A DNA stretch of 64,000 bases from a virus (lineage: Duplodnaviria; Heunggongvirae; Uroviricota; Caudoviricetes), in IMG/VR virus record IMGVR_UViG_3300008113_000307, positions 21,919-85,918 of that record; one strand, 5' to 3'. Both the position numbers and the translations under genes were made by a program. The notes under the pieces were generated by a model. The model saw only the letters and a program-made list of their open reading frames with translations, made no database searches and was not told where the DNA came from. Of this stretch, positions 1-44,587 are shown one piece after another (positions within the stretch are counted from its first letter, which is position 1; each line of letters begins with the position of its first letter).

Positions 1-325
1 TCGATTGGGTCAAGAGTAGCAGAGTGGACAGCACAGTAGGCGATGACTGTAAATCAAGCAAAACCTTTAAATGCAAATGATGACGCATTTTTGATGGCCG
101 CCTGATAGGCACCATCTGAGTTTTGCTAGTTGAACTTGGAAACAGAATCAACTAGCCTTATTTCGCCGAAAATCGTAGACTTTTTGCGACCTGTCATATA
201 TAATAGCACTTATGAACAAACACATTGCACTGATCAACAACATAGCCCCTGAAGCGGCCGTGGCCTATGAGCACGATCGTCCGCCCGGTCTTTGTGAGTG
301 AGTAGAACCAACTGCCCCACACAAA

Positions 326-461: not shown

Positions 462-490
462 TTGACCAGTATTGCACTCAGTGTTATACT
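462..490 (+). promoter_or_regulatory. sigma70-like promoter
   Basis: TTGACC -35, 17-nt spacer, TATACT -10, upstream of tRNA array. Confidence 0.5.
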
Positions 491-666
491 AGAGGCTAGT
501 TAGGAGAAACAGTCGATCGTGGCTGTGGATCAGATCGTTAAAAATTTATGTTTGTGTAGTGAACTCGGGTTAGCCCCGGGCACTATATGAGAACACACTT
601 GATTCCCCTGTAGCTACCCCTGGGAGTTCGTAAGAATCAACGTAGCCAAGTGTGGTCCCATATAGT

Positions 667-741
667 GGAGCGTTCGTCTATCGGTTAGGACATCAGGTTT
701 TCATCCTGAGAAGAGGGGTTCGACTCCCCTACGCTCTTCCA
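667..741 (+). tRNA. tRNA-Glu(TTC)
   Basis: Cloverleaf folded by hand: acceptor ggagcgt/acgctct, anticodon loop ttTTCat, T-loop ttcgact, encoded CCA. Confidence 0.65.
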
Positions 742-798
742 AGTTAGGGTGCTGTATACAGTTAAATGTGGTAGAACCGCAGCCGGAGATAGTATAAT

Positions 799-883
799 GG
801 AGAATCCGCCGCAATGGTGTGGCAGGGGACTGTAAATCCTCCGACTTCGGTCACGACTGGTTCGATCCCAGTATTCTCCACCA
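799..883 (+). tRNA. tRNA-Tyr(GTA), type II
   Basis: Acceptor ggagaat/attctcc, anticodon loop ctGTAaa, long variable arm, T-loop ttcgatc, CCA. Confidence 0.7.
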
Positions 884-1082
884 AGAACGTTCCAGCTAAT
901 CACTGGATAGTGTGACCCACACGATGAGAAGTGCAGTGATATGCACGGGTGGTAGTCTTCGAACCGAAAGGCCGCTAGCAATGCGACAACGGTCCCGGTC
1001 GGGAAGCGGGTGGAAGGTACGTGTGATGACTCCAAAGGTCTGATGTACTACAATTACCGCCGCGGGATGCAGAGCATTTTTG

Positions 1083-1240
1083 TTTTTATAGTTAAGCACC
1101 GATAAAGGTATCGTGTGGGGACGCTCACACTATTCGGGTCAAAGCGGCCGGCGACTGATCCTGAAACAACTGCTATCGGCTGTTGCACTCTTAGCGGAGT
1201 ACGCATAAATCAAGCATCTCTCGGTGCTTAACTATAAAAA
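1083..1240. repeat. Perfect 20-bp inverted repeat pair (1083-1102 and 1221-1240) enclosing 118 bp
   Basis: tttttatagttaagcaccga and its exact reverse complement; sits between tRNA-Tyr and tRNA-Asp. Confidence 0.6.
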
Positions 1241-1244
1241 TTTA

Positions 1245-1320
1245 GGTCTTAAAGTGTTCATGGACGCACGACGGCTTGTCACGCCGTAAGAGTGGGGATC
1301 GTTACCCCCTAAGACCGCCA
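1245..1320 (+). tRNA. tRNA-Asp(GTC), non-canonical T-loop ATCGTTA
   Basis: Acceptor ggtctta/taagacc, anticodon stem acggc/gccgt with loop ttGTCac, CCA; T-loop gggg-atcgtta-cccc. Confidence 0.55.
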
Positions 1321-1328
1321 AGTTTAAT

Positions 1329-1403
1329 GGGCTGTTAGTGATAATGGTAGCACGGGGCCTTTGCAAGGCTTAGGTGGGAGTTCGATCCTCCCACGGTCCA
1401 CCA
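1329..1403 (+). tRNA. tRNA-Ala(TGC)
   Basis: Acceptor gggctgt/acggtcc (G3:U70 present), anticodon loop ttTGCaa, T-loop ttcgatc, CCA. Confidence 0.65.
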
Positions 1404-1410
1404 AGTTTAT

Positions 1411-1490
1411 GTGCGTTTGGTCTAAATGTTAGGGCGTCATGACAGGGGGCTAATAACCTCAAGATGCGGGTTCGAATCCCGTAACGCACA
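1411..1490 (+). tRNA. tRNA, anticodon unresolved (possibly AAT)
   Basis: Acceptor gtgcgtt/aacgcac and canonical T-arm gcggg-ttcgaat-cccgt; central region has an extra gtcatgac hairpin; 3' end is ccg rather than CCA. Confidence 0.4.
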
Positions 1491-1496
1491 CCGTTT

Positions 1497-1573
1497 TGCA
1501 GCAATGGAGGGGTAGGGGGCATGTCCTCCGCATTCTAGATTCCCGCAGTGGTTCGAGTCCACTGGCTGCACCA
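1497..1573 (+). tRNA. tRNA-like element without a canonical anticodon arm
   Basis: Acceptor tgcagca/ggctgca 6/7, T-arm agtgg-ttcgagt-ccact, 5-bp ggagg/cctcc hairpin with 14-nt loop; contains ttCTAga but no flanking stem. Confidence 0.3.
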
Positions 1574-2030
1574 AGTTTTGCTTAGTTAGTATCAGAAAGT
1601 GTGTTTAATTGGGGCAACGAACTTTTACTCTGCCCGAGGAGTGGTATCGTAAAGATATATGGACCACCTTTACACAGTGCAATCAAGTTTTGTTAGTATA
1701 TGATAGAGTAATGTTCCAGGGTGTGGATTCCCTACTATCTTGTGGATAAGCCCGTTCGAATCGGGTCAATAGAGAACATTCTAACAGATCAAGTTTTGTA
1801 GCGTCGGCAAGAGAAAGGCACACTGGCAAGATTCTTCGAAGATCAAGTCAGTGTAGAGCAGAAGGGGGTTCGACTCCCCGCCATTCGGAAGAATGGTAGC
1901 TGTAGTGGTAGCGTCTGGTCGAGTATCCCAAGCGACATGTCCTGGAAAACCTCGACGTTAGGAAAGTCCGGCTCTGAACGTCTAAACACCAGCAATAAAC
2001 CTGAGGATGCTGGGCTACAAATTCAACATC

Positions 2031-2105
2031 GGGGGCAGCAGAGGGCTGCGGTGTTCGCTGGCAGCGATCATGTCTAGAGGGGTTCGATACCCCCGGTCTC
2101 CACCA
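2031..2105 (+). tRNA. tRNA-like element with Ala-type acceptor (G3:U70), no anticodon arm
   Basis: Acceptor gggggca/ggtctcc + A + CCA, T-arm gggg-ttcgata-cccc, two short hairpins in place of D/anticodon arms. Confidence 0.35.
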
Positions 2106-2110
2106 AATAC

Positions 2111-2185
2111 ATCGCATTGGACTTCAGGTGAGGTCATCACCCTTTCAAGGTGACTAGACGGGATCGTTACCCGTATGCGATACCA
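2111..2185 (+). tRNA. tRNA-Glu(TTC) variant, T-loop ATCGTTA, A1:U72
   Basis: Acceptor atcgcat/atgcgat, D-stem gact/ggtc, anticodon stem tcacc/ggtga with loop ctTTCaa, CCA. Confidence 0.55.
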
Positions 2186-2239
2186 TTCTTGAAAATAATC
2201 GAACCTAGCTAAATACTCTTATAAACATAAGGGTTCGAT

Positions 2240-2740
2240 ATGACAAAAGTTTGTCCAAAATGTAATTCAGAGCATCATAAAAATGGCACATTTTGCAGTA
2301 GAAAATGTGCCAACAGTAGAACATTCAGTGAAGAATCTAAGATTAAAAAATCTTTAGCAAGTAAAAAACATTATCAATCACTTAGTGAAGATGATAAAAA
2401 TAAAATTAACAAACGTCTCAAAGAGTTGTCCATTAACACTCAGGGGTATCGATTAGAACTTTTGCTCTCAAAAGAGTTTTCAACCTTAGCGTATCAGAGC
2501 AAGAGAAAGCGAGTTTTGATAGAACAAGAATTTAAATGCAAAAAATGCAATATAGATACTTGGTTTGGTAAACCATTGACTCTAGAATTGGAGCATATCG
2601 ATGGCAATCATCAAAATGATATTAGGTCAAATTTAATAGCATTGTGTCCAAACTGCCATAGTTTAACTGAAACATGGAGGGGACGCAATAGAAAGAACAA
2701 ATTACCCCCAGTAGCTCAAGGAGAGCAGGTCGTTTTATAA
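2240..2740 (+). CDS. HNH homing endonuclease
   Basis: N-terminal Cys-rich region and HNH motif EHIDGNHQND...NLIALCPNCHS; low GC; inserted among tRNA genes. Confidence 0.8.
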   Translation: MTKVCPKCNSEHHKNGTFCSRKCANSRTFSEESKIKKSLASKKHYQSLSEDDKNKINKRLKELSINTQGYRLELLLSKEFSTLAYQSKRKRVLIEQEFKCKKCNIDTWFGKPLTLELEHIDGNHQNDIRSNLIALCPNCHSLTETWRGRNRKNKLPPVAQGEQVVL

Positions 2741-2794
2741 GCGATTAATCTAGATAAGGTCCAGGATGAGGTTCGATTCCTCACTGGGGGACCA
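2705..2794 (+). tRNA. tRNA, long variable region, anticodon probably TAT
   Basis: Acceptor cccccag/ctggggg perfect, D-stem gctc/gagc, anticodon stem gtcgt/gcgat with loop ttTATaa, T-loop ttcgatt, CCA; 5' end overlaps last 36 nt of HNH gene. Confidence 0.4.
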
Positions 2795-3253
2795 AGAAAC
2801 TTCATCTGGGTTCAATTCCCGGCGGGGGTACCAAGTTAAACAAGTCAGGTGTGAACAAGAGGTTGATCACCAGCCCAGCTGCCAGGGACTACTATCGATC
2901 CACATCTCTGATCGGATGGAAACATCGCGACAACTGCTGATCACAGTTACTCATGTCAGTGGAAGGAAGTCTCGGCTTTGTGCCGACAGTACCTTTAAAC
3001 GCAAGGCAGTGCCTGACTTGTTTATCCAAAATCAGTTGACACTTATTCCAGAGTCAGCTACAATACACACATGCCAACTAATACTTGGTATTAGTGAACT
3101 CATTACGTGCACCATTCTGCGGGCTCTCAGGATTGCAAGATCCCGTATCCCAAGGTTGTCAGCGGGTAGACATGGAAGTCGCTGTGCTCCGAGCACAGAA
3201 AGACGCCGTGGTAGTGAGGTCACTAATACAAAGAATTTTGGCAACATTGACAG

Positions 3254-3282
3254 TTGACATGATTCACTGTTGATGTTACAAT
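3254..3282 (+). promoter_or_regulatory. sigma70-like promoter
   Basis: TTGACA-17-TACAAT; downstream region has no convincing ORF. Confidence 0.45.
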
Positions 3283-3791
3283 AAAGATTACAGGGCAGCG
3301 TAATGTCCTGTACAGTTGGGTTCGCCCAGCTGTGCAAAAGATAACTGTGGTGACACAGCCAAAGGAGGTATGCCTACATAACTCCGCCAGCAAAGGTCTG
3401 GTTACGCAAGCCTGCTCACTAGGGTGACCTAGCGATCACTGATAAGACCGGTGGTTGTAACAACGACGCTGGATGTTGTGGAAAGAACGTTTGCCGACAA
3501 GCCTGAGATTGTATCAAGGGGAACTTGGGTAGATGGAAAGTAACAGGTGGTGCTGACTTCACAACTAAACCAGTCCAGTTAGTTAGTATGAGAAAGGGTA
3601 GTGTACATGTCCGAGGGGTTGCACCCAAGGGCTAGTATGCAGTTTGAGTGGTAGGTGGGACTGTCAGCAATGGCGGGGTCACACTGATCGCAAAAGACGA
3701 CTGAGTAGCTCGCAAGGCCAAAGGTACGTGGTGTGTTGTATTGGGTAGAGCAAAACTTTATTCAGCAACTGTGTCAGCACATCGCAGTAGG

Positions 3792-3864
3792 TTCAGTTAT
3801 AGCACAATGGTAGTGCATCTCCCTGTTAAGGAGACGGCTGAAGGTTCAACTCCTTCTAACGTTT
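3792..3864 (+). tRNA. tRNA-Asn(GTT), acceptor pairing imperfect
   Basis: D-arm gcac-aatggta-gtgc, anticodon stem tctcc/ggaga with loop ctGTTaa, T-arm gaagg-ttcaact-ccttc. Confidence 0.4.
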
Positions 3865-4128
3865 AAAAAGCAAAGACTGACACGGCGGTATGTGAAAAGC
3901 ATCTAATACTTGACACGCAAGTGAATCAAGTCCAACGTAGCTCGCAAGGTGAAATTGGTTTATGCAGGAAGTTTCGTAAGGTGTTAGCGCACTTGAATGG
4001 CTAGGTGCTGTTAGGTAAGCATGTAATCTCAGTGCTCCACTATTCTAAAACACATTACCCCCGTAAAACGGTCTATACTAGTCACTAACCGAGTTGTTGT
4101 GTAGTGTGTTTCAGAATGGTAAATATAT

Positions 4129-4202
4129 CGCGGGTAGGGTGGCCACCACACCGGTCTCATAAGCCAGGTGCATCGGCAGTTCGAATCTGTCACCCGCATC
4201 CA
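4129..4202 (+). tRNA. tRNA-Met(CAT), initiator-like (C1-A72 mismatch)
   Basis: Acceptor cgcgggt/acccgca with 1-72 mismatch, anticodon loop ctCATaa, T-arm ggcag-ttcgaat-ctgtc, CCA. Confidence 0.5.
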
Positions 4203-4248
4203 GTTTTTTGGCGTGTTGTATAAATACAACATAAAATTTTTCACTTGG

Positions 4249-4277
4249 TTGACAACATCGACTAAGTACAGTACAAT
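4249..4277 (+). promoter_or_regulatory. sigma70-like promoter of a short transcription unit
   Basis: TTGACA-17-TACAAT; ATG 4285 and terminator at 4443-4475. Confidence 0.5.
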
Positions 4278-4442
4278 AGGACACATGATGAAACAACAAT
4301 TCTGTTCACAGCTGACCAAACCCACAATGCTCCAGACATCCGTCTGGTCGCACGGTTTTGGCCGCGTGAATAGTATTCCAGGCATCAGGGTCCACGAAGG
4401 TTGGGACGATTAACAAGTCGTAACACACACAAACTTCAAAGA

Positions 4443-4475
4443 CCCTGGAACTCAAAACTCCAGGGTTTTTCTTTT
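4443..4475 (+). terminator. Rho-independent terminator
   Basis: ccctgga-actcaaaact-tccaggg stem-loop followed by tttttctttt. Confidence 0.7.
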
Positions 4476-4685
4476 AGTGCAAGGCAACGCGAGCCGGCAA
4501 CACTCAAAACTGCAAATGAGGGCGTCCTCGGGGATGAGAAGCACTTCTTGTAGTGTGTGAAAAAACCGAGCGTATCGAAGAGGATTGTTCTCTTAACTGA
4601 GCATCCGCGGAGAGGAACTAATATTATGTTCGACTGACTCAACAGTCTTCTTCGATACCTGCATTGGCAACAGTGCAGTAAATTT

Positions 4686-4759
4686 ACCCGCATAGCTCAA
4701 AGGTAGAGCACACGCTTGATAAGCGTTAGACCAAGGATCGTTACCTTGTGTGGGTACCA
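4686..4759 (+). tRNA. tRNA-Ile(GAT), T-loop ATCGTTA
   Basis: Acceptor acccgca/tgtgggt, anticodon loop ttGATaa, CCA. Confidence 0.55.
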
Positions 4760-4765
4760 AATTTT

Positions 4766-4840
4766 ATCTCTCTGGTGTAATGGCAGCACATCGGCCTCCA
4801 AAGCCGTAAGGTCAGGGTTCGAGTCCTTGGGGGGATGCCA
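4766..4840 (+). tRNA. tRNA-Trp(CCA)
   Basis: Acceptor atctctc/gggggat (GU pairs), anticodon stem cggc/gccg with loop ctCCAaa, T-loop ttcgagt, G discriminator, CCA. Confidence 0.65.
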
Positions 4841-4848
4841 ATTTTTGT

Positions 4849-4922
4849 TCGGGAATTGTGTAATGGTAGCACAACAGACTTTGACTCTGTTAGCCTAGGT
4901 TCGATCCCTAGTTCCCGTGCCA
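4849..4922 (+). tRNA. tRNA-Gln(TTG)
   Basis: Anticodon stem acaga/tctgt with loop ctTTGac, T-arm ctagg-ttcgatc-cctag, G discriminator, CCA. Confidence 0.55.
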
Positions 4923-4932
4923 GTTTTTGTAT

Positions 4933-5011
4933 TCCACAGAACCCGAGCGTGGTGCATGGGCCGGACTGTTAATCCGTGGTTAGCTGGGATCGTCACCCAG
5001 ATGTGGAGCCA
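4933..5011 (+). tRNA. tRNA-Asn(GTT) variant, T-loop ATCGTCA
   Basis: Acceptor tccacag/atgtgga, anticodon loop ctGTTaa resembling E. coli tRNA-Asn, CCA. Confidence 0.5.
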
Positions 5012-5017
5012 AGTTTT

Positions 5018-5093
5018 CTCCGTATAGCGTAATCTGGTAGCGTTCCTGGTTTGGGGCCAGGAGGTTGGGGTTCAAATCCTCATATGGAGACCA
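5018..5093 (+). tRNA. tRNA-Pro(TGG)
   Basis: Acceptor ctccgta/tatggag, anticodon stem tcctgg/ccagga with loop ttTGGgg, T-loop ttcaaat, CCA. Confidence 0.6.
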
Positions 5094-5101
5094 AAAATTT
5101 G

Positions 5102-5130
5102 TTGACAGTAACCGCTGTTGACTATATAAT
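5102..5130 (+). promoter_or_regulatory. sigma70 consensus promoter
   Basis: TTGACA-17-TATAAT immediately upstream of tRNA-Asn. Confidence 0.6.
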
Positions 5131-5148
5131 ACAAACAACAAAGTATGT

Positions 5149-5223
5149 TCCTCAGTAGCTCAGCGGTAGAGCAATCGGCTGTTAACCGATCGGTCATTGG
5201 TTCGATCCCAGTCTGAGGAGCCA
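5149..5223 (+). tRNA. tRNA-Asn(GTT)
   Basis: Acceptor tcctcag/ctgagga perfect, anticodon loop ctGTTaa, near-identical in outline to E. coli tRNA-Asn, CCA. Confidence 0.8.
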
Positions 5224-5281
5224 AAATAAAAAGCGGATGACCTTTCTGCTCTTTTGTATAAATAAAACAAAGGAGCATGAT

Positions 5282-5671
5282 ATGAATGTGAATCAAAAAG
5301 GAAACATTGGCTTATTAAAAGTTATTAGTGATTTGTATAACAAAGGTTTTACAGCGTTTAAACCGTTTGATGACTACAATCCAGTGGATTTGATTGCTAT
5401 GGAATCGTCTGGAAAAACGTTTAGACTACAAGTAAAATATCGTAGTATGGATCCTAAAAGAAAAAGATATGAAATTTCTGCACAATCTATAGTTAATAGC
5501 AAAGCTGTGCCAATAGATAGAAATCTAATAGATTTTTGGGCAGTATATTTGGCAGATCTAGATCAAGTGGTCTATATGCCGGTTAGTATTATGGAGGGCA
5601 AAGGAGTCCACTATATTACTGAGAGACAATTAGGTGAGATGGATGAGAGGTTGAAATCGGCACCCTGCTAA
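5282..5671 (+). CDS. PD-(D/E)XK family nuclease (Hjc/Holliday-junction-resolvase-like)
   Basis: RBS aaaggag then ATG; motif GNIGLLKVISDLYNKGF...PVDLIAME...RLQVK matches the D-x-E-x-K restriction-endonuclease fold; low GC; 3' end overlaps tRNA-Ser. Confidence 0.5.
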   Translation: MNVNQKGNIGLLKVISDLYNKGFTAFKPFDDYNPVDLIAMESSGKTFRLQVKYRSMDPKRKRYEISAQSIVNSKAVPIDRNLIDFWAVYLADLDQVVYMPVSIMEGKGVHYITERQLGEMDERLKSAPC

Positions 5672-5724
5672 GGTGTTTTCTTGGGAAACCAGGGACGTGG
5701 GTTCGAATCCCACTTTCACCACCA
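5633..5724 (+). tRNA. tRNA-Ser(GCT), type II
   Basis: Acceptor ggtgaga/tttcacc, anticodon loop ctGCTaa, long variable arm cttgg-gaaa-ccagg, T-loop ttcgaat, CCA. Confidence 0.6.
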
Positions 5725-5753
5725 ATTTAGAGTTTAGCAAACTCAAACAATTC

Positions 5754-5827
5754 GCCCTGTTAGTTAAGTGGCATAACGCCTGTTTTGTAATCAGGAGTTG
5801 GCAGTTCGATTCTGTCACGGGGCACCA
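5754..5827 (+). tRNA. tRNA-Thr(TGT)
   Basis: Acceptor gccctgt/acggggc, D-arm gtta-agtggca-taac, anticodon loop ttTGTaa, CCA. Confidence 0.55.
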
Positions 5828-5835
5828 ATTAAAAT

Positions 5836-5911
5836 GCGGGTGTAGCTCAGTTGGTAGAGCACTTCCTTGCCAAGGAAGATGTCAGGAGTTCGAGCCTCCT
5901 TACCCGCTCCA
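5836..5911 (+). tRNA. tRNA-Gly(GCC)
   Basis: Acceptor gcgggtg/tacccgc, anticodon stem cttcc/ggaag with loop ttGCCaa, T-loop ttcgagc, CCA. Confidence 0.7.
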
Positions 5912-6009
5912 ATTTTTGTAGAGATGCAAGTGCCAAACTGAGCGCATGCTCACCGGTGCATCCCGGCTATGCCTAGATATTGGCTCTGGGCTTACTACAT
6001 TTTTCTTTT

Positions 6010-6083
6010 GCTCTTGTAGTTAAGTGGTATAACGAATCCATGGTAAGGATTAATCGACAGTTCGATTCTGTACTTGAGCACCA
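6010..6083 (+). tRNA. tRNA-Thr(GGT), acceptor has 2 mismatches
   Basis: D-arm gtta-agtggta-taac, anticodon stem aatcc/ggatt with loop atGGTaa, CCA. Confidence 0.45.
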
Positions 6084-6137
6084 CCCAACCGGCCCATACC
6101 ATCCCTTGACGAGCAGGTCCCTGGGCTTTGTTTTCGC

Positions 6138-6213
6138 GCCGCGGTAGCTCATCAGGTAGAGCAGCAGACTGAAAATCTGTGTGTGGCTGGTTCGAGTCCA
6201 GCTCGTGGCACCA
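6138..6213 (+). tRNA. tRNA-Phe(GAA)
   Basis: Acceptor gccgcgg/tcgtggc, anticodon stem gcaga/tctgt with loop ctGAAaa, T-loop ttcgagt, CCA. Confidence 0.7.
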
Positions 6214-6219
6214 TCTAAT

Positions 6220-6297
6220 GCGTCTTTAGCTCAGTTGGAATAGAGCACTGGTTTACGAAACCGGGGGTCGGGAGTTCGAGTCTCTCAGGACGCACCA
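6220..6297 (+). tRNA. tRNA-Arg(ACG)
   Basis: Acceptor gcgtctt/aggacgc, anticodon stem ctggt/accgg with loop ttACGaa, CCA. Confidence 0.7.
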
Positions 6298-6302
6298 CAC
6301 AG

Positions 6303-6331
6303 TTGACAACAATTGCAGATTGTTGTATAAT
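6303..6331 (+). promoter_or_regulatory. sigma70 consensus promoter
   Basis: TTGACA-17-TATAAT upstream of the second tRNA sub-cluster. Confidence 0.6.
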
Positions 6332-6443
6332 TAAGACTTAAACAAAAAGGTTACACTATGAAACGCTCAGGCAAACCCTAGTGTCATCCTGGTCCCCCGT
6401 ATGGTCCTGGATGGCACGTAAAAGACAATCTATTACGATCCAT

Positions 6444-6518
6444 CCATGCTAAACTTTGCTGGCGAAGTACCCGGCTCTTACCCGGACAAACTGAGTTCGA
6501 TTCTCAGAGCATGGACCA
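6444..6518 (+). tRNA. tRNA-Lys(CTT)
   Basis: Acceptor ccatgct/agcatgg perfect, D-stem actt/aagt, anticodon stem ccgg/ccgg with loop ctCTTac, T-loop ttcgatt, CCA. Confidence 0.5.
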
Positions 6519-6521
6519 TAT

Positions 6522-6596
6522 GGGGGCATAACTTAACGGCTAAAGTAGTCGGCTTTTAACCGACCTATCAGAGTTCAATTCTCTGTGCCCCTACCA
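6522..6596 (+). tRNA. tRNA-Lys(TTT)
   Basis: Acceptor gggggca/tgcccct, anticodon stem gtcgg/ccgac with loop ctTTTaa, T-loop ttcaatt, CCA. Confidence 0.7.
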
Positions 6597-6668
6597 TATG
6601 CAAACACATTAACAGCGTCGTGCCGGTCGCCGGACTTAGGTTGAATTCCTAATAGTGTGTTTACATAT

Positions 6669-6743
6669 GGTGTCGTTAGTTTAGTGGCAAAACCGCGGAT
6701 TGTGATTCCGCTATCATGAGTTCAATTCTCATACGATACCCCA
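6669..6743 (+). tRNA. tRNA-His(GTG) with extra 5' G(-1)
   Basis: Extra 5' g, acceptor gtgtcgt/acgatac, anticodon stem gcgga/tccgc with loop ttGTGat, C discriminator, CCA. Confidence 0.7.
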
Positions 6744-6789
6744 CATACCAAAATTACATAAGTTAGACTTAATCTACATAATTAATAAT

Positions 6790-7833
6790 ATGACAAATCA
6801 GTATAGTGACGTTCTCAATACTCATAAAATCATGTTCAACGATTCTATTAGAAATAATTTTTACAAAAAAATTTTAACTGGTTGCGTTGAGAACAAGCAC
6901 TGCGTAGAAGTGGGGTTTGGTACTGGCATTTTATCTGTTATTGCATGTGATCTTGGTGCAAAACATGTGATTGCATATGAGCACAATCTCGACACATACA
7001 ACTTTGGTCAGGAAATGATCAAAACTTTAAACTTGACCGACAGAATTTTATTGCTTAATGAAACATTTGAACCTTCCAAACTATCACAACATCATAAGAT
7101 AGATGTAATGTTTTCTGAAACAGTTGATAATGCGTTATGGGGGGAAGGTTGGTATCTCAATACATTTATTGATGACCCAAACATAAACATACTGCCCAAC
7201 AAATATTTTTTCGAATCTTTTTGTATTGAAGTCGAAGATAATTATGCTCAAGGGCTACTAATGGGTCCTGAACACTTGTGTAATCCAGGCATACCCATCA
7301 ATCATCAATTTGTTGATTTTATTAATCAACATCTCACATCTGGTGGTAGTAAAGATACGGTTGTATCTAAAATTGACGAGTATTACACTAATAAAATAGT
7401 TGACATAAGTTTGGCCAATCAAGGTACTTTTTGGGGATGGCACACCCAACTAATGGAAGCGTTTGATATTAGACAGAAAGTTGCCGATTTTCAATATGCA
7501 TTAGACCTTAACAAAAAAAACATAATTTTAACAGACAAATATAAAACAACTATAAAAAAAATAAACCCAGATTTATCGTCGATAGAATTTCAACTAAAAA
7601 TGGAAAATCCCGATTCTAATTATCTAATATTTTTTAGAGTAGGATTAGAATCCGGCAACGAAAAATTTTATTTAGATAGCGGACATTTTGGACCTTTCAG
7701 TTCAGCGTTTTTACTGAGAAGTTCTTCTAAAAATAAAATAGTAAATCTTTCACATAATTTGTTCGATGGCGGAATAACTGCTGAATACAATAAAAAAATT
7801 ATCAAAAAAGTTGCTTCGGATAATTGGGCATGA
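6790..7833 (+). CDS. Class I SAM-dependent methyltransferase, PRMT-like
   Basis: NDSIRNNFYKKIL, motif I VEVGFGTGILS, and IDVMFSETVDNALWGEGW resemble type I protein arginine methyltransferases; strongly AT-rich. Confidence 0.55.
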   Translation: MTNQYSDVLNTHKIMFNDSIRNNFYKKILTGCVENKHCVEVGFGTGILSVIACDLGAKHVIAYEHNLDTYNFGQEMIKTLNLTDRILLLNETFEPSKLSQHHKIDVMFSETVDNALWGEGWYLNTFIDDPNINILPNKYFFESFCIEVEDNYAQGLLMGPEHLCNPGIPINHQFVDFINQHLTSGGSKDTVVSKIDEYYTNKIVDISLANQGTFWGWHTQLMEAFDIRQKVADFQYALDLNKKNIILTDKYKTTIKKINPDLSSIEFQLKMENPDSNYLIFFRVGLESGNEKFYLDSGHFGPFSSAFLLRSSSKNKIVNLSHNLFDGGITAEYNKKIIKKVASDNWA

Positions 7834-7872
7834 CCTATTGCAACAATTAGGTTGGCCTTTCAACATAGACAT

Positions 7873-7947
7873 GGAAGTATAGCACAGCGGTAGTGCAGCA
7901 CCTTCATACGGTGTTGGTCAGTAGTTCGAATCTACTTACTTCCACCA
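7873..7947 (+). tRNA. tRNA-Met(CAT) (elongator Met or Ile2 precursor)
   Basis: Acceptor ggaagta/tacttcc perfect, anticodon stem gcacc/ggtgt with loop ttCATac, T-loop ttcgaat, CCA. Confidence 0.65.
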
Positions 7948-7948
7948 T

Positions 7949-8023
7949 GGGCCTTTGGTGAAATGGATATCATGCTGGTCTTCGAAACCAGCGGTGGGAG
8001 TTCGATCCTCTCAGGGCCCGCCA
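7949..8023 (+). tRNA. tRNA-Arg(TCG)
   Basis: Acceptor gggcctt/agggccc, anticodon stem ctggt/accag with loop ctTCGaa, CCA. Confidence 0.6.
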
Positions 8024-8201
8024 GTTATAACGATGCAATGAATCGCCTGGCTGATTCAGCGTCAACAAAATAGAACATGCGCAGGCTGTCGTCGTAAATA
8101 TCATTGACAATGATGTAGCCTGTGTTGTCGTTGCTCATGCTGAGATGGATTTGAATTCCGTCTGCGGTGAGAGTGTCGTAGATGTACATAAGTTTATTTA
8201 A

Positions 8202-8275
8202 GCGGGTAAGCTCAAGGTGAGACGTCAGCCTTCCAAGCTGCACTGAGTGGGGTTCGACTCCCCCTACCCGCTCCA
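8202..8275 (+). tRNA. tRNA-Gly(TCC)
   Basis: Acceptor gcgggta/tacccgc, anticodon stem cagc/gctg with loop ctTCCaa, T-loop ttcgact, CCA. Confidence 0.65.
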
Positions 8276-8281
8276 GTTTTT

Positions 8282-8355
8282 CTCGGTATGGTGAAATGGT
8301 ATCACTCGACGTTTGGGACGTTGGAGCGTAGGTTCGATTCCTGCTACCGAGACCA
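8282..8355 (+). tRNA. tRNA-Pro(TGG), second copy
   Basis: Acceptor ctcggta/taccgag perfect, D-stem gtga/tcac, anticodon stem cgacg/cgttg with loop ttTGGga, CCA. Confidence 0.55.
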
Positions 8356-8362
8356 TGACAAT

Positions 8363-8439
8363 GCACAGGTGGCGGAGTGGCCCAACGCAAGGGATTGCAA
8401 ATCCCTAAAACCGTGAGTTCAAATCTCACCCTGTGCTCC
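8363..8439 (+). tRNA. tRNA-Cys(GCA)
   Basis: Acceptor gcacagg/cctgtgc perfect, anticodon stem aggga/tccct with loop ttGCAaa, T-loop ttcaaat, CCA. Confidence 0.7.
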
Positions 8440-8445
8440 AGATAC

Positions 8446-8537
8446 GGAAAGTAATGCAGCGGGGATGGTCCTGCGACTGGCCTTGAAAACCAGGTTCTCT
8501 TAACAGGGATGGGGTTCGACTCCTCTGCTTTCCGCCA
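8446..8537 (+). tRNA. tRNA-Ser(TGA), type II
   Basis: Acceptor ggaaagt/gctttcc, anticodon loop ctTGAaa (reads UCA), long variable arm, T-loop ttcgact, CCA. Confidence 0.6.
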
Positions 8538-8557
8538 TAAGTACAGCAAAGGAGATC

Positions 8558-8728
8558 ATGATGACAAGATCAGCAATTTTTCAAAACAAAATTACTCGGG
8601 AACGCCTGATCTGCGACAACGTGGATCTTGTGCGTTGGTTTGATGGTGCGGCCTTTTTGTCAGTTCGGCGAGAAGGAACTGAACGACGTTTCCTAATTCG
8701 TCGCGATGCACTGCAAGAAATAGTATAA
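8558..8728 (+). CDS. Hypothetical small protein (56 aa)
   Basis: Strong RBS aaaggag 6 nt upstream of ATG; between tRNA-Ser and tRNA-Val. Confidence 0.5.
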   Translation: MMTRSAIFQNKITRERLICDNVDLVRWFDGAAFLSVRREGTERRFLIRRDALQEIV

Positions 8729-8737
8729 TTGACACAT

Positions 8738-8812
8738 GCCTGGTTAGCTCAGGGGGAGAGCGCTTCGTTTACACCGAAGATGTCCGCGGTTCGAAACCGT
8801 GACCAGGTACCA
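8738..8812 (+). tRNA. tRNA-Val(TAC)
   Basis: Acceptor gcctggt/accaggt, anticodon stem cttcg/cgaag with loop ttTACac, T-loop ttcgaaa, CCA. Confidence 0.65.
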
Positions 8813-8818
8813 AACATA

Positions 8819-8893
8819 GTCTCTGTAGTTCAATGGATAGAACAAGTTCCTCCTAAGAATTAGATATCAGTTCAATTCTGGTCAGAGACGCCA
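8819..8893 (+). tRNA. tRNA-Arg(CCT)
   Basis: Acceptor gtctctg/cagagac perfect, anticodon stem agttc/gaatt with loop ctCCTaa, T-loop ttcaatt, CCA. Confidence 0.6.
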
Positions 8894-8933
8894 ATCTTGC
8901 GATAGTGGTGGCATCAATAATTTTATTTTTACT

Positions 8934-9782
8934 GTGATTAATTATTTTACCGATAATCTCCTATTTGCATATTATCCACAGGGCGCTGGGGGGAAATTTT
9001 TACTTAACTGCATTGGATTAAGTGATCATTCCGTATTACAATCTAGAGCACTAGTGGTAAAACAACTTGAAAATAATTTTAATCAAGACCAAAAATTTAA
9101 TTGGTTACTGGAAAAAATTAAATATGCTAAAAAAAGAAAACACTGGAATGATCTGGACCTTGGTTGTACTGAATTGTTTGGACAGGAAGATCAACCATAT
9201 TATCCAGAAATAGACATACTATCTAACTCACATTTAATTTTTTCCAAAGTAGCACACAGTTATAATGTGTTGCTAGACGCAACTAACACTTGGCCCAATG
9301 CAAAAATTTTGCAACTAGAAAATTGTCATAACTTTATTTCAGCATATAGATCTCATACTTTGTCCAATCCAGCAGCCCCCGAACCTGATATTTTGTCATT
9401 AGTTTGGAAAAATATTAGAGATCAATCATGGCCAGTTAATCATCCCACTACGCTAGAAGAATACAATCAATTAGATATTAAAATTCGTAATGAAGATCAA
9501 TACATGCATAATCATTCAATTTTACAAGAGATTATTAAATGCAAACAACTGAATTATCGGCTATTGCAAAATATCAACGTTATTAAATGGGACTGTGATT
9601 GGTTTTTTGATTGTGATGTTTGTGTTGATCAATTAAGTACAGTATATCAAAAACTTTGTTTACCTGACTTCGATCGAAAAAAAATTAAAGCCTATTTTTT
9701 AGCCTGGATAGACTGTCTAGATACTATAGACAAAGATCAAAAGAAAAATCTCAGAAGCAATAAAAGCCAAATGGGAAGATAG
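8934..9782 (+). CDS. Hypothetical protein (282 aa), AT-rich
   Basis: Long low-GC ORF embedded in tRNA array; GTG start; no family recognised. Confidence 0.5.
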   Translation: MINYFTDNLLFAYYPQGAGGKFLLNCIGLSDHSVLQSRALVVKQLENNFNQDQKFNWLLEKIKYAKKRKHWNDLDLGCTELFGQEDQPYYPEIDILSNSHLIFSKVAHSYNVLLDATNTWPNAKILQLENCHNFISAYRSHTLSNPAAPEPDILSLVWKNIRDQSWPVNHPTTLEEYNQLDIKIRNEDQYMHNHSILQEIIKCKQLNYRLLQNINVIKWDCDWFFDCDVCVDQLSTVYQKLCLPDFDRKKIKAYFLAWIDCLDTIDKDQKKNLRSNKSQMGR

Positions 9783-9788
9783 AAAAAT

Positions 9789-9873
9789 GCGGATGTGGCG
9801 TAATTGGTAGCCGCACCAGATTTAGGTTCTGGCGTTGAAAGGCGTGGGGGTTCGAGTCCCTTCATCCGCACCA
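9789..9873 (+). tRNA. tRNA-Leu(TAG), type II
   Basis: Acceptor gcggatg/catccgc perfect, anticodon stem ccaga/tctgg with loop ttTAGgt (reads CUA), long variable arm, CCA. Confidence 0.65.
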
Positions 9874-9921
9874 AGACTCTCCCTGACACACGGAGTATAA
9901 TAGGACAAGTAGTGTGTTTCC

Positions 9922-9995
9922 AGGTCATTAGCTCAAAGGTAGAGCGGTGCATTGACATTGCACATACAGCGGATCGTTACCGTTATGACCTACCA
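9922..9995 (+). tRNA. tRNA-Val(GAC), T-loop ATCGTTA
   Basis: Acceptor aggtcat/atgacct perfect, D-arm gctc-aaaggta-gagc, anticodon stem gtgca/tgcac with loop ttGACat, CCA. Confidence 0.55.
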
Positions 9996-10003
9996 AACAT
10001 CAT

Positions 10004-10080
10004 GCCTTTGTAGCCGAATTGGTATAGGCACTGCGTTGAGGTCGCAGGTTCTGCTGGTTCGAGTCCAGTCAAAGGCACCA
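10004..10080 (+). tRNA. tRNA with Leu anticodon GAG but short (type I) variable arm
   Basis: Acceptor gcctttg/caaaggc perfect, anticodon stem ctgcg/cgcag with loop ttGAGgt, 5-nt variable region, T-loop ttcgagt, CCA. Confidence 0.5.
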
Positions 10081-10085
10081 TTTTT

Positions 10086-10157
10086 AGCGTCACTCTGGCT
10101 GATCTAACTGGGGTCCAATCCCGGTAGTCAAAGGTTCGATTCCTGCAGGCGCTGCCA
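10086..10157 (+). tRNA. Short tRNA-like element with Trp anticodon CCA and reduced D-arm
   Basis: Acceptor 6/7, anticodon stem ctggg/cccgg with loop gtCCAat, T-loop ttcgatt, CCA; only 69 nt before CCA. Confidence 0.35.
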
Positions 10158-10335
10158 TTTTTGCAAACACAAAACCGTGCAGGGGCAATCCCCCGGCTGG
10201 CCCTGTGCAGTGATGCATAACCAGCGGATCAGGTGTCGGGGTGAGAGGCCCCGGGTCGTTTCTGGTGGAAACAGCATCTAGTAACGATGCTGACGACAGC
10301 AGTGCCCTGCACGAAACCAGGTGTTTGCGTTTTTA

Positions 10336-10603: not shown

Positions 10604-11008
10604 ATGCTGGATAGATTGTTTACAGGTCTTGAAGATATACAAACAAAAACTTGCGGAATGTGTTTGAAAACTCTACCGCTAACTATGTTCGGTAACGACG
10701 GCGGCGCAAAATATCTTAGATATGAGTGCAAGACATGTGCAAAAGCTCAAAGCAAATTGTTAAAAACAATTAAAAAATCTGCACCAGCAATTCCTAAAGA
10801 TTACAAGTGTCCAATTTGCAAGCGTAATGAGCAAGAAGCTAAAGGACATAATCCCAACAAAAAAGGAATTTGGTGTGCCGACCACAATCATGCATCGGGT
10901 AAATTTAGAGGTTGGCTATGTCACAAATGCAATTTAGGATTAGGCAATATGAACGATGACATAGATAGATTAGAAGCTGCTATCAAATATTTAAAGGAGA
11001 AACCATGA
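10604..11008 (+). CDS. Recombination endonuclease VII family protein
   Basis: Cys clusters plus [25 protein letters not shown]...LEAAIKYL match the T4 endo VII signature. Confidence 0.75.
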
Positions 11009-11676
11009 AACGTGTGATTGAAATTCGTGCTGCCGAAGGCGGCGAAGACTCTAAGTTGTTTGTGCAAGATCTTGCACAGGCCTACATCAAGTTTGCTCAC
11101 AGCAAAGGCTGAGCTGCCCGCCTGACAAATCAGATGGCCGGCGAGCAGCATGTGTTGGTCGAAGGCGGTGATTTATCAGGCTTGACGAACGAAGCAGGAG
11201 GGCATCGTATTCAACGAGTGCCGCCTACCGAACGCAAAGGCCGTGTGCATACCAGCACAGTGACAGTGGCCATAGTTGACCCCCGAACCATTGCTACCAC
11301 CATTCGAGAGAGTGATCTCTATGTAGAGTGGTATTCAGGTACAGGTGCTGGAGGGCAGTATCGCAACAAGCATCAAAACTCATGTAGAATCACACATGTG
11401 CCCACCGGCATCACTGCCAAGTCTGAGTGCCGAAGCCGAGCCAACAGTTTGGCTGAAGCTACCCAGGCCATACAGCAACGAGTTGACCACGTGCTACAAA
11501 GTCGCTATAATAGTGCAGTGGCACAGGATCGACGTTCACAAGTGGGCACTGGCCAGCGAGGAGACAAAATACGCACCTATAGATTTCAAGACGATGTCAC
11601 ACAAGACCATGTGACTGGACAACGTGCCAGCACACGACGAGTGTTACAGGGAAACTTTGATCTCTTGTGGAACTGA
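11005..11676 (+). CDS. Truncated class I release factor (RF1-like, domains 2-4) interrupted by an in-frame TGA at 11110-11112
   Basis: ATGA overlap with upstream gene; [34 protein letters not shown] aligns with RF1 VRAGTGGDEAALFAGDL..ARRW; downstream [12 protein letters not shown] (PxT motif), SGTGAGGQ and [13 protein letters not shown] match RF1 domains 3-4. Confidence 0.8.
11113..11149 (+). promoter_or_regulatory. Stable hairpin directly 3' of the in-frame TGA (candidate recoding/readthrough stimulator)
   Basis: gctgcccgcc pairs with ggcgagcagc (9 of 10 bp) around a 17-nt loop, starting at the first nucleotide after the stop codon. Confidence 0.55.
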
Positions 11677-11810: not shown

Positions 11811-11888
11811 GCCCCTGTGGACAAATTGGCAAAGTCGCTTCTCTCAAAAGGAAGAGTGTTCTCAGTTCGACTCTGAGCAGGGGTACCA
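11811..11888 (+). tRNA. Solitary type-I tRNA with anticodon CAA (Leu UUG codon), A73 discriminator
   Basis: Acceptor gcccctg/caggggt, D-stem gac/gtc with 11-nt loop, anticodon stem cttct/ggaag with loop ctCAAaa, T-loop ttcgact, CCA; sits 130 nt after the release-factor gene. Confidence 0.55.
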
Positions 11889-44493: not shown

Positions 44494-44587
44494 CTATAGA
44501 TAAATGGATCTCGTTTACGTAACTCTTTGAGTTTTTTTCTGTAACGAATTTCTAGAGTGATTCTTGCCCATAGTCGTTTGATCCAGT

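Follow-up and report, generated by a model that had tools for sequence, protein, structure and literature searches.

The interval from 660 to 10160 of a 64-kb window of viral DNA is very probably the transfer RNA (tRNA) island of a very large uncultured tailed phage. The window, from IMG/VR record IMGVR_UViG_3300008113_000307, is the whole stretch of 64,000 nucleotides (nt) that was analyzed, and all coordinates given here are window positions. An earlier reading of this DNA, here called the original prediction, had proposed a tRNA array of about 9.5 kb with at least 35 tRNAs covering all 20 amino acids, and the combination of ARAGORN, Rfam, and related loci bears this out with 35 genes. A transfer-messenger RNA (tmRNA) gene on the left, the tRNA island, and a gene for an RF1-like release factor (RF) on the right form a phage translation module, and this layout is conserved across a phage family with contigs of up to 364 kb. 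Baseplate, virion-structural, and tail-fiber-like proteins are encoded in the same window.

We called tRNA genes with ARAGORN at its default setting and in relaxed runs (-ps90, -ps80, and -ps70), and with the Rfam tRNA covariance model RF00005, whose gathering score is 29 bits. The relatives used for comparison were 80 loci holding a homolog of the RF1-like gene, with about 20 kb visible for each; individual loci carry L numbers, those outside this set including L322, which is Acinetobacter phage KARL-1. At default, ARAGORN called 30 plus-strand tRNAs between 667 and 10080, which by themselves cover all 20 amino acids, and a 31st, Leu-CAA, on the plus strand at 11811-11888, leaving the rest of the 64 kb empty of tRNA calls. 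RF00005 reached its gathering score at 29 sites within 660-10160 and again at 11811. Three RF00005 sites are missed by ARAGORN at default (1411-1490, 46.8 bits; 3796-3860, 57.9 bits; 8202-8272, 30.7 bits), and relaxed ARAGORN runs (-ps90 and -ps80) together with manual and comparative checks added Asn-GUU at 4933-5011, Ser-UGA at 8446-8537, and an Ala-like gene at 2031-2105. The total comes to 35 genes that stand alone and have a readable anticodon loop; one further tRNA-like domain is nested in a GOLLD RNA. Thirty of these genes are textbook or near-textbook, and five are atypical but kept in relatives or above the Rfam tRNA threshold.

Automated prediction, with 30 ARAGORN calls in the interval and one beyond it, did not yield far fewer tRNAs than had been folded by hand. 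The earlier list of isotypes was largely accurate, including a His tRNA with G-1 (an encoded G at 6669 lies opposite C73) and a single initiator-like Met (4129-4202, which carries a C1·A72 mismatch), although it sums to 33 rather than 35. It corresponds to ARAGORN's 30 calls without Ile-UAU at 2705-2794 and with the sites at 3796, 4933, 8202, and 8446 added. As an inventory of the interval it was incomplete, since it overlooked GOLLD, an RNA of 205 nt, a long-arm tRNA(UAU), and five open reading frames (ORFs) of low G+C content.

An encoded CCA end is present in all 31 default calls, and their anticodon loops are 7 nt long and nearly all of the form U33-NNN-R37. Bacterial-type identity elements include G-1 and C73 in His, G3·U70 with A73 in both Ala genes, and U73 in Gly and Cys, as well as A1-U72 with G73 in Trp and C1·A72 in the initiator-like Met. 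Discriminator bases are likewise mostly of the bacterial type, the exceptions to the E. coli rule being Glu (U73 and A73) and Ser-GCU (A73). A mismatch at 27·43 occurs in three default calls (Ile-GAU, Trp, and Lys-CUU). The genes stand in tight groups, within which A/T-rich spacers measure 1-10 nt. The initiator-like Met gene is found at 86-92% identity in four relatives, and Gly-UCC (8202-8275) is 91% identical to its counterparts in L008 and L076.

Homologs of the RF are encoded by 195 IMG/VR viral contigs at 64-79% identity, several of them 320-364 kb long, and among the 80 related loci up to 43 tRNAs per 20 kb flank the RF gene. No close cultured phage was found, with only single tRNA-sized matches turning up, and the best RF match among GenBank phage records is below 40% identity.

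Several observations weigh against reading the interval as the working tRNA island of such a phage. Seven genes lie below the Rfam tRNA threshold and rest on ARAGORN or comparison (Asp 1245, Glu 2111, Met 4129, Lys-CUU 6444, Asn 4933, Ala-like 2031, and Ser-UGA 8446). The set is unmatched to the codon usage of the window: a tRNA is present for the rare AGG, and there is none for AGA or UUA, which make up 15% of the Arg codons and 8% of the Leu codons, respectively. The size of the phage genome is taken from relatives with at most 79% RF identity, the window itself being 64 kb, and expression, processing, and charging are all deduced from sequence. Genes for tRNAs reading AGA and UUA do occur in relatives. 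The left part of the island may extend beyond the window edge, where the tmRNA gene is cut.

In the mechanism that we propose, host sigma-70 RNA polymerase would transcribe the island as several polycistronic units, and host RNase P and 3'-end nucleases would release the tRNAs, the same cuts freeing the structured RNAs that lie between them. The island tRNAs would be charged by host synthetases and would sustain phage translation when host tRNAs are limiting, ill matched to phage codons, or damaged.

Five genes (Asp, the second Glu, Ile-GAU, Val-GAC, and the odd Asn at 4933-5011) have the T-loop AUCGUUA or AUCGUCA, in which positions 54 and 58 are swapped. Asp, the second Glu, and the odd Asn are missed by the Rfam tRNA model, possibly because of these loops, while Ile-GAU and Val-GAC still score 56-58 bits. 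We found no account in the literature of A54/U58-swapped T-loops in phage tRNAs. The odd Asn gene shows compensatory changes at 8 of 23 pairs across five loci and shares about 94-95% identity with a gene of the KARL-1 tRNA cluster that carries no annotation (L322:5553-5631). The Ser-UGA gene is 92-96% identical to copies in L010, L066, and L080; its loop, CUUGAAA, can be aligned with those of 12 Ser(UGA) tRNAs from relatives and with the E. coli sequence. Assignment of this gene as a tRNA-Sec (36 bits) was rejected on its base-for-base alignment with Ser(UGA) tRNAs. The gene at 1411-1492, which has an enlarged D region and an anticodon stem of 4 base pairs (bp), is kept in eight related loci at about 82% identity, with compensatory pairs present.

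The original prediction had also listed five degenerate tRNA-like elements, and all five are present. One of them, 2031-2105, is conserved rather than degenerate. It was thought to lack a canonical anticodon arm, and it has a 7-bp anticodon stem with a 7-nt loop, along with a 4-bp D stem with a 4-nt loop, G3·U70, A73, and CCA. The loop reads CUGGCAG (GGC) in the window and CUUGCAA (UGC) in relatives, and in an alignment of six sequences 10 of the 22 pairs show compensatory changes and G3·U70 is invariant. Because G3·U70 suffices for alanyl-tRNA synthetase (AlaRS), this RNA probably accepts alanine. Phage tRNAs would appear to be undercounted, as standard predictors miss genes whose T-loops have A54 and U58 swapped, whose D arms are enlarged, or whose anticodon stems are extended; cultured Acinetobacter phages hold one gene of this kind that is not annotated.

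The remaining four elements (1497-1573, 2806-2833, 6601-6665, and 10086-10157), which are anticodon-less or orphans, had been put forward as candidate pseudo-tRNAs, decoys, or processing signals. As decoys they would act on tRNA-cutting host nucleases; as punctuation they would guide RNase P and 3'-end nucleases. All four keep an acceptor-like stem and a T arm, the parts seen by RNase P, and all four occupy normal tRNA slots with spacers of 4-11 nt. The element at 1497-1573, which has a long central hairpin ending in a 5-nt loop instead of an anticodon loop, is kept in L041 at 86% identity with four compensatory pairs, so at least this one is under selection. Together with 6601-6665 and 2806-2833, it failed our anticodon-loop test. 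We nevertheless consider a functional role for the group as a whole doubtful. The element at 2806-2833 is accounted for by partial duplication of a tRNA 3' half beside the HNH endonuclease gene: because it matches the 3' end of the orthologous L040 tRNA(UAU), the window holds a new, perfectly paired tRNA(UAU) 3' half as well as the old one. For 6601-6665 (a 7-bp acceptor-like stem, a T arm, no D arm, and a central hairpin with a 3-nt loop) and 10086-10157 (a 6-bp acceptor stem, G73, CCA, a 3-bp T stem, no D stem, and a central hairpin with the loop GUCCAAU), decay fits better than a decoy role. Neither has a counterpart in the 80 loci, similarity to other tRNAs is limited to their T arms, and both fold with ordinary energies, within the shuffled range; moreover, 6601-6665 has lost its CCA and ends in ACA, and none of seven relatives has a counterpart of 10086-10157 after Leu(GAG). 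Both are probably lineage-specific, decaying genes.

The tRNA(UAU) gene at 2705-2794, with a variable region of 21 nt, belongs to a long-arm type that is also found, at 92 nt, in nine related loci (e.g., L040:3579-3670 and L050:2446-2537). There the variable region is 23-25 nt long and, by eye, could form a 3-4 bp stem with the loop YAGAUWA, which resembles the anticodon loop of Ile-GAU. The phage genes have a class I-type D arm, and their acceptor stem resembles that of bacterial tRNA-Ile2 and not that of tRNA-Leu; because of these two features, they look like tRNA-Ile with an inserted arm. The nearest precedent is the nev-tRNAs of nematodes, leucine-accepting class II tRNAs whose anticodon is UAU or CCC (Hamashima et al. 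2012, PMC3333845). The window gene and its 92-nt relatives likewise join a long variable region with UAU, but differ from nev-tRNAs in their class I-type D arm.

The RF1-like gene contains an in-frame TGA at 11110-11112. This TGA is present in 78 of 78 sequences (window and relatives) and aligns exactly with the Trp of the KGW motif in Thermotoga maritima RF1; the codons flanking it vary synonymously, and the base after it is never U. An internal ATG at 11134 is not conserved in relatives, so the downstream part of the RF cannot start alone there. Since the protein sequence is conserved on both sides of the TGA and there is no conserved internal start, something must read this UGA. The genetic code is standard, given that TGA is the commonest ordinary stop in the window; it ends 18 of the 37 long ORFs, and a TGA-recoded genome was rejected for that reason. 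A scan for long open frames on either side of a TGA returned chance cases only, the best of which (25852) is two separate genes.

No suppressor that could read this codon was found in the window or the related loci. The original prediction had found none, and we confirmed that UCA, CUA, and UUA anticodons are absent from the ARAGORN calls in the window at default and at -ps90, and from all 938 default calls in the window and the 80 related loci, so that no suppressor had been missed at these settings. The "stop" and "Pyl" calls made at -ps80 and -ps70 were discarded, as they depend on introns of 11-121 nt, are on the minus strand, or fall inside the HNH ORF. The element at 10086-10157 was considered as a conserved Trp-like UGA decoder (A1-U72, G73, and GUCCAAU) and rejected: it is absent from relatives, and only its T arm matches tRNAs. 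Scanning the viral contigs for the anticodon arm of a Trp-type tRNA with UCA in it (CGGTCTTCAAAACCG) was uninformative, with unrelated contigs among the matches listed. In KARL-1, ARAGORN calls a tRNA with a CUA (amber-reading) anticodon at L322:3423-3497, where the record annotates no tRNAs. What emerges is a recoding problem, in which the RF gene needs UGA as Trp, the main stop of the genome is UGA, and no suppressor gene is in sight.

This raises the question as to whether the island's own tRNA-Trp(CCA) at 4766-4840 is a hidden UGA decoder that reads the UGA of the RF1-like gene as Trp. Synthesis of the release factor would in that case have to wait for expression of the tRNA island, a near-cognate translational timer. 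The invariant TGA at the Trp position of KGW, its synonymously variable flanks, the lack of an independent downstream start in relatives, and the absence of a UCA-anticodon tRNA from the 938 calls all fit such a decoder. So does the structure of the gene itself, the only tRNA-Trp in the window, in which a U27·U43 mismatch leaves a 4-bp anticodon stem alongside A1-U72, G73, and a U11-A24 pair. In E. coli, leaving 27-43 unpaired in tRNA-Trp(CCA) raises UGA readthrough about 2.5-fold (Fakih et al. 2026, PMC13092985). The window resembles that system in having a tRNA-Trp unpaired at 27·43 and a conserved Trp-position UGA, 6.3 kb apart, but here the unpairing is neither conserved in the family nor specific to Trp, and TGA is otherwise the commonest stop. 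Among 23 Trp tRNAs, 8 are mismatched at 27·43, 5 have G·U, and 10 have a Watson-Crick pair, so the mismatch is not kept wherever the RF UGA is. Against a background of 11% of 723 unique tRNAs, the mismatch occurs in 28% of Trp tRNAs, 27% of Ser, and 44% of Lys, and we rejected an enrichment in Trp because it is at least as frequent in Lys. The U11-A24 pair is also natural in the tRNA-Trp of Bacillus subtilis, which weighs further against the idea, and a host tRNA-Trp, or a suppressor elsewhere in genomes of more than 300 kb, could read the UGA instead. On balance, we regard the island tRNA-Trp as distinctly unlikely to be the decoder.

The phage tRNA island, the reading that we prefer, also holds RNAs that are not tRNAs. 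One is the unclassified structured RNA of about 205 nt, which begins at the base directly after the CCA of tRNA-Tyr. In an alignment of 56 distinct sequences (A10), 98.2% of cells are paired and compensatory changes support 27 of 49 pairs; 500 shuffles gave nothing as good, and slid controls gave 39-52% paired. Its 15-nt core occurs in at least 120 viral contigs and the whole element in at least 84. Nearly all of these whole-element loci (82 of the 84) hold tRNAs, with a median of 14, and in about 54 of the 84 the RNA starts no more than 15 nt after the upstream tRNA, most often Tyr. Further copies include L003:12882-13090, L040:7184-7395, L029:1475-1688, and those in loci L202-L303. The RNA matched no Rfam family even at E ≤ 10 and no DNA among GenBank phage records, and we found no description of it in the literature on tRNA-island RNAs. 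Given its absence from Rfam 15, GenBank phage records, and searchable papers, we lean toward regarding it as an undescribed class of phage tRNA-island RNA, beside GOLLD and ROOL. It is thus a possible new RNA class with textbook covariation, filling tRNA slots in at least 84 viral contigs.

Directly past the 205-nt RNA, a perfect 20-nt inverted repeat (1083-1102 and 1221-1240) encloses 118 nt, and in some other contigs, too, its first arm follows the 205-nt RNA. A second long-range inverted repeat (about 2839-2850 and 3013-3024, with about 165 nt enclosed) lies before the promoter at 3036. Both segments could be further small RNAs.

The GOLLD RNA consists of a variable 5' domain (about 3290-3727) and a conserved 3' domain (3728-4035). 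RF02032 matches the latter with 102.9 bits (E 1e-26), which is under the gathering score of 150 because, relative to the orthologs, the 3' domain is short by about 150 nt. Orthologous copies in L058 (211.6 bits), L040 (210.5 bits), and L020 (203.5 bits) exceed the gathering score, and each carries a nested tRNA. Both halves of the window GOLLD are conserved in 12-16 related loci, and across about 660 nt its DNA is 71-88% identical to the copies in 16 loci, those three among them. The promoter-like site at 3254-3282 is positioned to start the GOLLD transcript. The tRNA-like domain at 3796-3860 was originally counted as a third, free-standing Asn tRNA; it lies inside GOLLD, has a 4-bp closing stem that covaries across eight loci, and lacks CCA, and its "anticodon" differs among those loci (GUU, CUU, AUU, and UUC). 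From these features, it looks like a structural tRNA-like module and not a releasable decoding tRNA.

GOLLD RNA is said to have been described by Weinberg et al. in 2009. That it occurs in phages close to tRNA islands, in some cases with a linker that holds tRNAs, is already published (Kretsch et al. 2025, PMC12286853); a passage of that paper, citing Morgado et al. 2020, also places GOLLD in mycobacterial tRNA arrays. The window copy shares the conserved 3'-domain motifs, the variable 5' domain, the phage tRNA neighbors, and the tRNA-like linker insert, and differs in being shortened, at 102.9 bits, and in a nested "tRNA" with only a 4-bp stem and no CCA. With at least 16 GOLLD loci, including this naturally shortened copy, the phage family bears on the cage function of GOLLD.

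That the array is instead a bacterial or plasmid "tRNA array unit," as in mycobacteria and other bacteria, is very improbable: GOLLD also occurs in the mycobacterial arrays just mentioned, and some large plasmids bear similar translation gene sets (PMC7162821), but the related contigs, which reach 320-364 kb, belong to a viral collection, the window itself encodes virion proteins, and none of 185,579 representative genomes of bacteria and archaea has a match to the 30-nt core of the 205-nt RNA.

Seven sigma-70 promoter-like sites, all on the plus strand and with 10-12 of 12 consensus matches, accompany the island of this phage (Table 1). One of them, a perfect promoter at 6303-6331, belongs to the leader of the Lys tRNA pair, which also contains a Lys/Arg-rich mini-ORF (MKRSGKP and a stop, ATG at 6358) and two hairpins that exclude each other, of which the second overlaps tRNA-Lys(CUU) at its 5' end. 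The leader is kept in 18 loci, and at least 16 of these show the Lys(CUU)-Lys(UUU) pair. Covariation in the second hairpin is modest, with one covarying pair and 88.7% of cells paired. The leader may couple translation to tRNA-Lys processing or output.

The tmRNA gene was matched by RF04321 at 1-105 (48.3 bits against a gathering score of 47, model positions 102-213) and by RF01850 at 1-175 (36.6 bits), and its tag frame, read from the sequence at 73-108, is ANDDAFLMAA followed by two stops. A hairpin and T run at about 327-352 looks terminator-like by eye; an automated scan gave this hairpin on the minus strand only. A self-contained unit lies at 4249-4475 on the plus strand, with the promoter at 4249-4277 and a 42-codon ORF from the ATG at 4285 to 4413; its hairpin and T run at 4441-4475 is terminator-like by eye and is not in the automated scan.

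Five ORFs in or beside the array have 32-37% G+C, versus 46% for the window. Three encode endonucleases (HNH, PD-(D/E)XK, and EndoVII), and these genes may be mobile insertions; the 3' end of the HNH ORF overlaps the tRNA(UAU) gene. Elsewhere in the window, five radical-SAM-like ORFs and a Nol-like carbamoyltransferase gene, assigned by PHROG matches, lie on the minus strand at 43009-53201 and may be a modification or biosynthetic cluster.

Table 1. Features of the tRNA island and its flanks in the 64-kb window. Bit scores given as "Rfam" are for RF00005 unless another model is named.
Feature	Position	Strand	Evidence
Permuted (two-piece) tmRNA gene, 3' part, cut by window edge	1-175	+	RF04321, RF01850
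Sigma-70-like promoter, 10/12, TG-extended, upstream of first tRNA group	462-490	+	Consensus match
tRNA-Glu(UUC)	667-741	+	ARAGORN; Rfam 54.1 bits
tRNA-Tyr(GUA), class II	799-883	+	ARAGORN; Rfam 32.4 bits
Unclassified structured RNA, ~205 nt	884-1085	+	Covariation alignment; viral contig distribution
tRNA-Asp(GUC), T-loop AUCGUUA (A54/U58 swapped)	1245-1320	+	ARAGORN; no RF00005 match even at E ≤ 10
tRNA-Ala(UGC), G3·U70	1329-1403	+	ARAGORN; Rfam 50.9 bits
Atypical tRNA-like gene, loop CUAAUAA (AAU), no encoded CCA	1411-1492	+	Rfam 46.8 bits
tRNA-like RNA: acceptor stem, T arm, ACCA end	1497-1573	+	ARAGORN only at -ps90
Atypical tRNA-Ala-like gene	2031-2105	+	ARAGORN -ps90 Ala(ggc); 6-sequence alignment
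tRNA-Glu(UUC), second copy, T-loop AUCGUUA	2111-2185	+	ARAGORN; no RF00005 match
HNH-motif endonuclease ORF, 166 amino acids, 33.5% G+C	2240-2740	+	Motif EHIDGNHQN...CPNCH; weak NCBIfam HNH-region matches
tRNA(UAU), 90 nt, class II-like, "Ile" by anticodon only	2705-2794	+	ARAGORN; Rfam 46.6 bits
tRNA 3' half leftover: T arm, acceptor 3' strand, ACCA	2806-2833	+	Aligns to 3' end of L040 tRNA(UAU)
Promoter-like site, 11/12	3036-3064	+	Consensus match
Promoter-like site, 11/12, TG-extended	3254-3282	+	Consensus match
GOLLD RNA, ~745 nt	3290-4035	+	RF02032; orthologs in relatives
tRNA-like domain in GOLLD linker, loop CUGUUAA	3796-3860	+	Rfam 57.9 bits, model positions 4-67 only
Initiator-like tRNA-Met(CAU), C1·A72, weak D arm	4129-4202	+	ARAGORN; Rfam 20.1 bits
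Promoter-like site, 11/12	4249-4277	+	Consensus match
tRNA-Ile(GAU), T-loop AUCGUUA	4686-4759	+	ARAGORN; Rfam 57.7 bits
tRNA-Trp(CCA)	4766-4840	+	ARAGORN; Rfam 52.9 bits
tRNA-Gln(UUG)	4849-4922	+	ARAGORN; Rfam 59.7 bits
Atypical tRNA-Asn(GUU), enlarged D arm, T-loop AUCGUCA	4933-5011	+	ARAGORN -ps90
tRNA-Pro(UGG)	5018-5093	+	ARAGORN; Rfam 54.3 bits
Perfect consensus promoter, 12/12	5102-5130	+	Consensus match
tRNA-Asn(GUU)	5149-5223	+	ARAGORN; Rfam 66.2 bits
PD-(D/E)XK endonuclease ORF, 144 amino acids, 34.5% G+C	5237-5671	+	Pfam PF11645, E 1.2e-15
tRNA-Ser(GCU), class II	5633-5724	+	ARAGORN; Rfam 57.4 bits
tRNA-Thr(UGU)	5754-5827	+	ARAGORN; Rfam 62.2 bits
tRNA-Gly(GCC)	5836-5911	+	ARAGORN; Rfam 67.1 bits
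tRNA-Thr(GGU)	6010-6083	+	ARAGORN; Rfam 49.5 bits
tRNA-Phe(GAA)	6138-6213	+	ARAGORN; Rfam 61.4 bits
tRNA-Arg(ACG)	6220-6297	+	ARAGORN; Rfam 59.4 bits
Conserved leader of Lys tRNA pair	6298-6443	+	Promoter match; conservation; hairpins
tRNA-Lys(CUU), C27·A43 mismatch	6444-6518	+	ARAGORN; no RF00005 match; 20 Lys(ctt) calls in relatives
tRNA-Lys(UUU)	6522-6596	+	ARAGORN; Rfam 63.9 bits
Probable tRNA-sized remnant	6601-6665	+	Sequence; fold z-score -1.86; no homolog in 80 loci
tRNA-His(GUG), encoded G-1 (6669), C73	6670-6743	+	ARAGORN; Rfam 58.8 bits
ORF, 347 amino acids, weak methyltransferase-like match, 32.3% G+C	6790-7833	+	Pfam PrmA, E 1.1e-4
tRNA-Met(CAU), elongator or Ile2 type	7873-7947	+	ARAGORN; Rfam 68.0 bits
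tRNA-Arg(UCG), 1 nt downstream of Met 7873	7949-8023	+	ARAGORN; Rfam 59.1 bits
tRNA-Gly(UCC), U73, weak D stem	8202-8275	+	Rfam 30.7 bits; ARAGORN -ps80
tRNA-Pro(UGG), second copy	8282-8355	+	ARAGORN; Rfam 58.2 bits
tRNA-Cys(GCA), U73	8363-8440	+	ARAGORN; Rfam 62.2 bits
tRNA-Ser(UGA), class II, C31·A39 mismatch	8446-8537	+	ARAGORN -ps90 "???"; Rfam tRNA-Sec model 36.1 bits
tRNA-Val(UAC)	8738-8812	+	ARAGORN; Rfam 58.9 bits
tRNA-Arg(CCU)	8819-8893	+	ARAGORN; Rfam 61.0 bits
ORF, 282 amino acids, no family match, 31.7% G+C	8934-9782	+	Protein family searches
tRNA-Leu(UAG), class II	9789-9873	+	ARAGORN; Rfam 52.5 bits
tRNA-Val(GAC), T-loop AUCGUUA	9922-9995	+	ARAGORN; Rfam 56.2 bits
tRNA-Leu(GAG)	10004-10080	+	ARAGORN; Rfam 59.6 bits
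Probable tRNA-sized remnant	10086-10157	+	Sequence; fold z-score -0.35; absent from all 80 loci
Endonuclease VII ORF, 36.8% G+C	10604-11008	+	Pfam PF02945, E 9e-16
RF1-like release factor gene, without domain 1; PPT and GGQ motifs	11005-11676	+	Sequence, family matches
tRNA-Leu(CAA), outlying island member	11811-11888	+	ARAGORN; Rfam 52.3 bits

Large, near-complete tRNA islands with a tmRNA and a release factor are already known in huge phages, and the array itself is one more example of this class. The value of the present analysis lies in its corrections and by-products, above all the GOLLD with a structural tRNA-like insert, the 205-nt RNA, the tRNA types that predictors miss, and the UGA in the RF gene. 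Huge phages carry up to 67 tRNAs, along with RF1, RF2, and tmRNAs (Al-Shayeb et al. 2020, PMC7162821). Like the islands of these phages (>200 kb), the one described here comes from metagenomic DNA, has dozens of tRNAs for most or all amino acids, and neighbors a tmRNA and a release factor gene. It differs in that its lineage is absent from GenBank phage records and in that its RF1-type RF lacks domain 1 and carries an in-frame UGA that is universally conserved.

The cluster of phage T4 offers a second comparison. As Broida and Abelson reportedly described in 1985, it comprises 8 tRNAs and two small stable RNAs that are co-transcribed and processed by the host. The window island likewise places tRNAs and non-tRNA stable RNAs in one array with very short spacers and homing-endonuclease genes nearby, and its atypical Asn tRNA has the close match, described above, in the cluster of KARL-1, a T4-like Acinetobacter phage. 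Unlike the T4 cluster, the island is four times larger, covers all 20 amino acids, and has multiple promoters and a GOLLD RNA.

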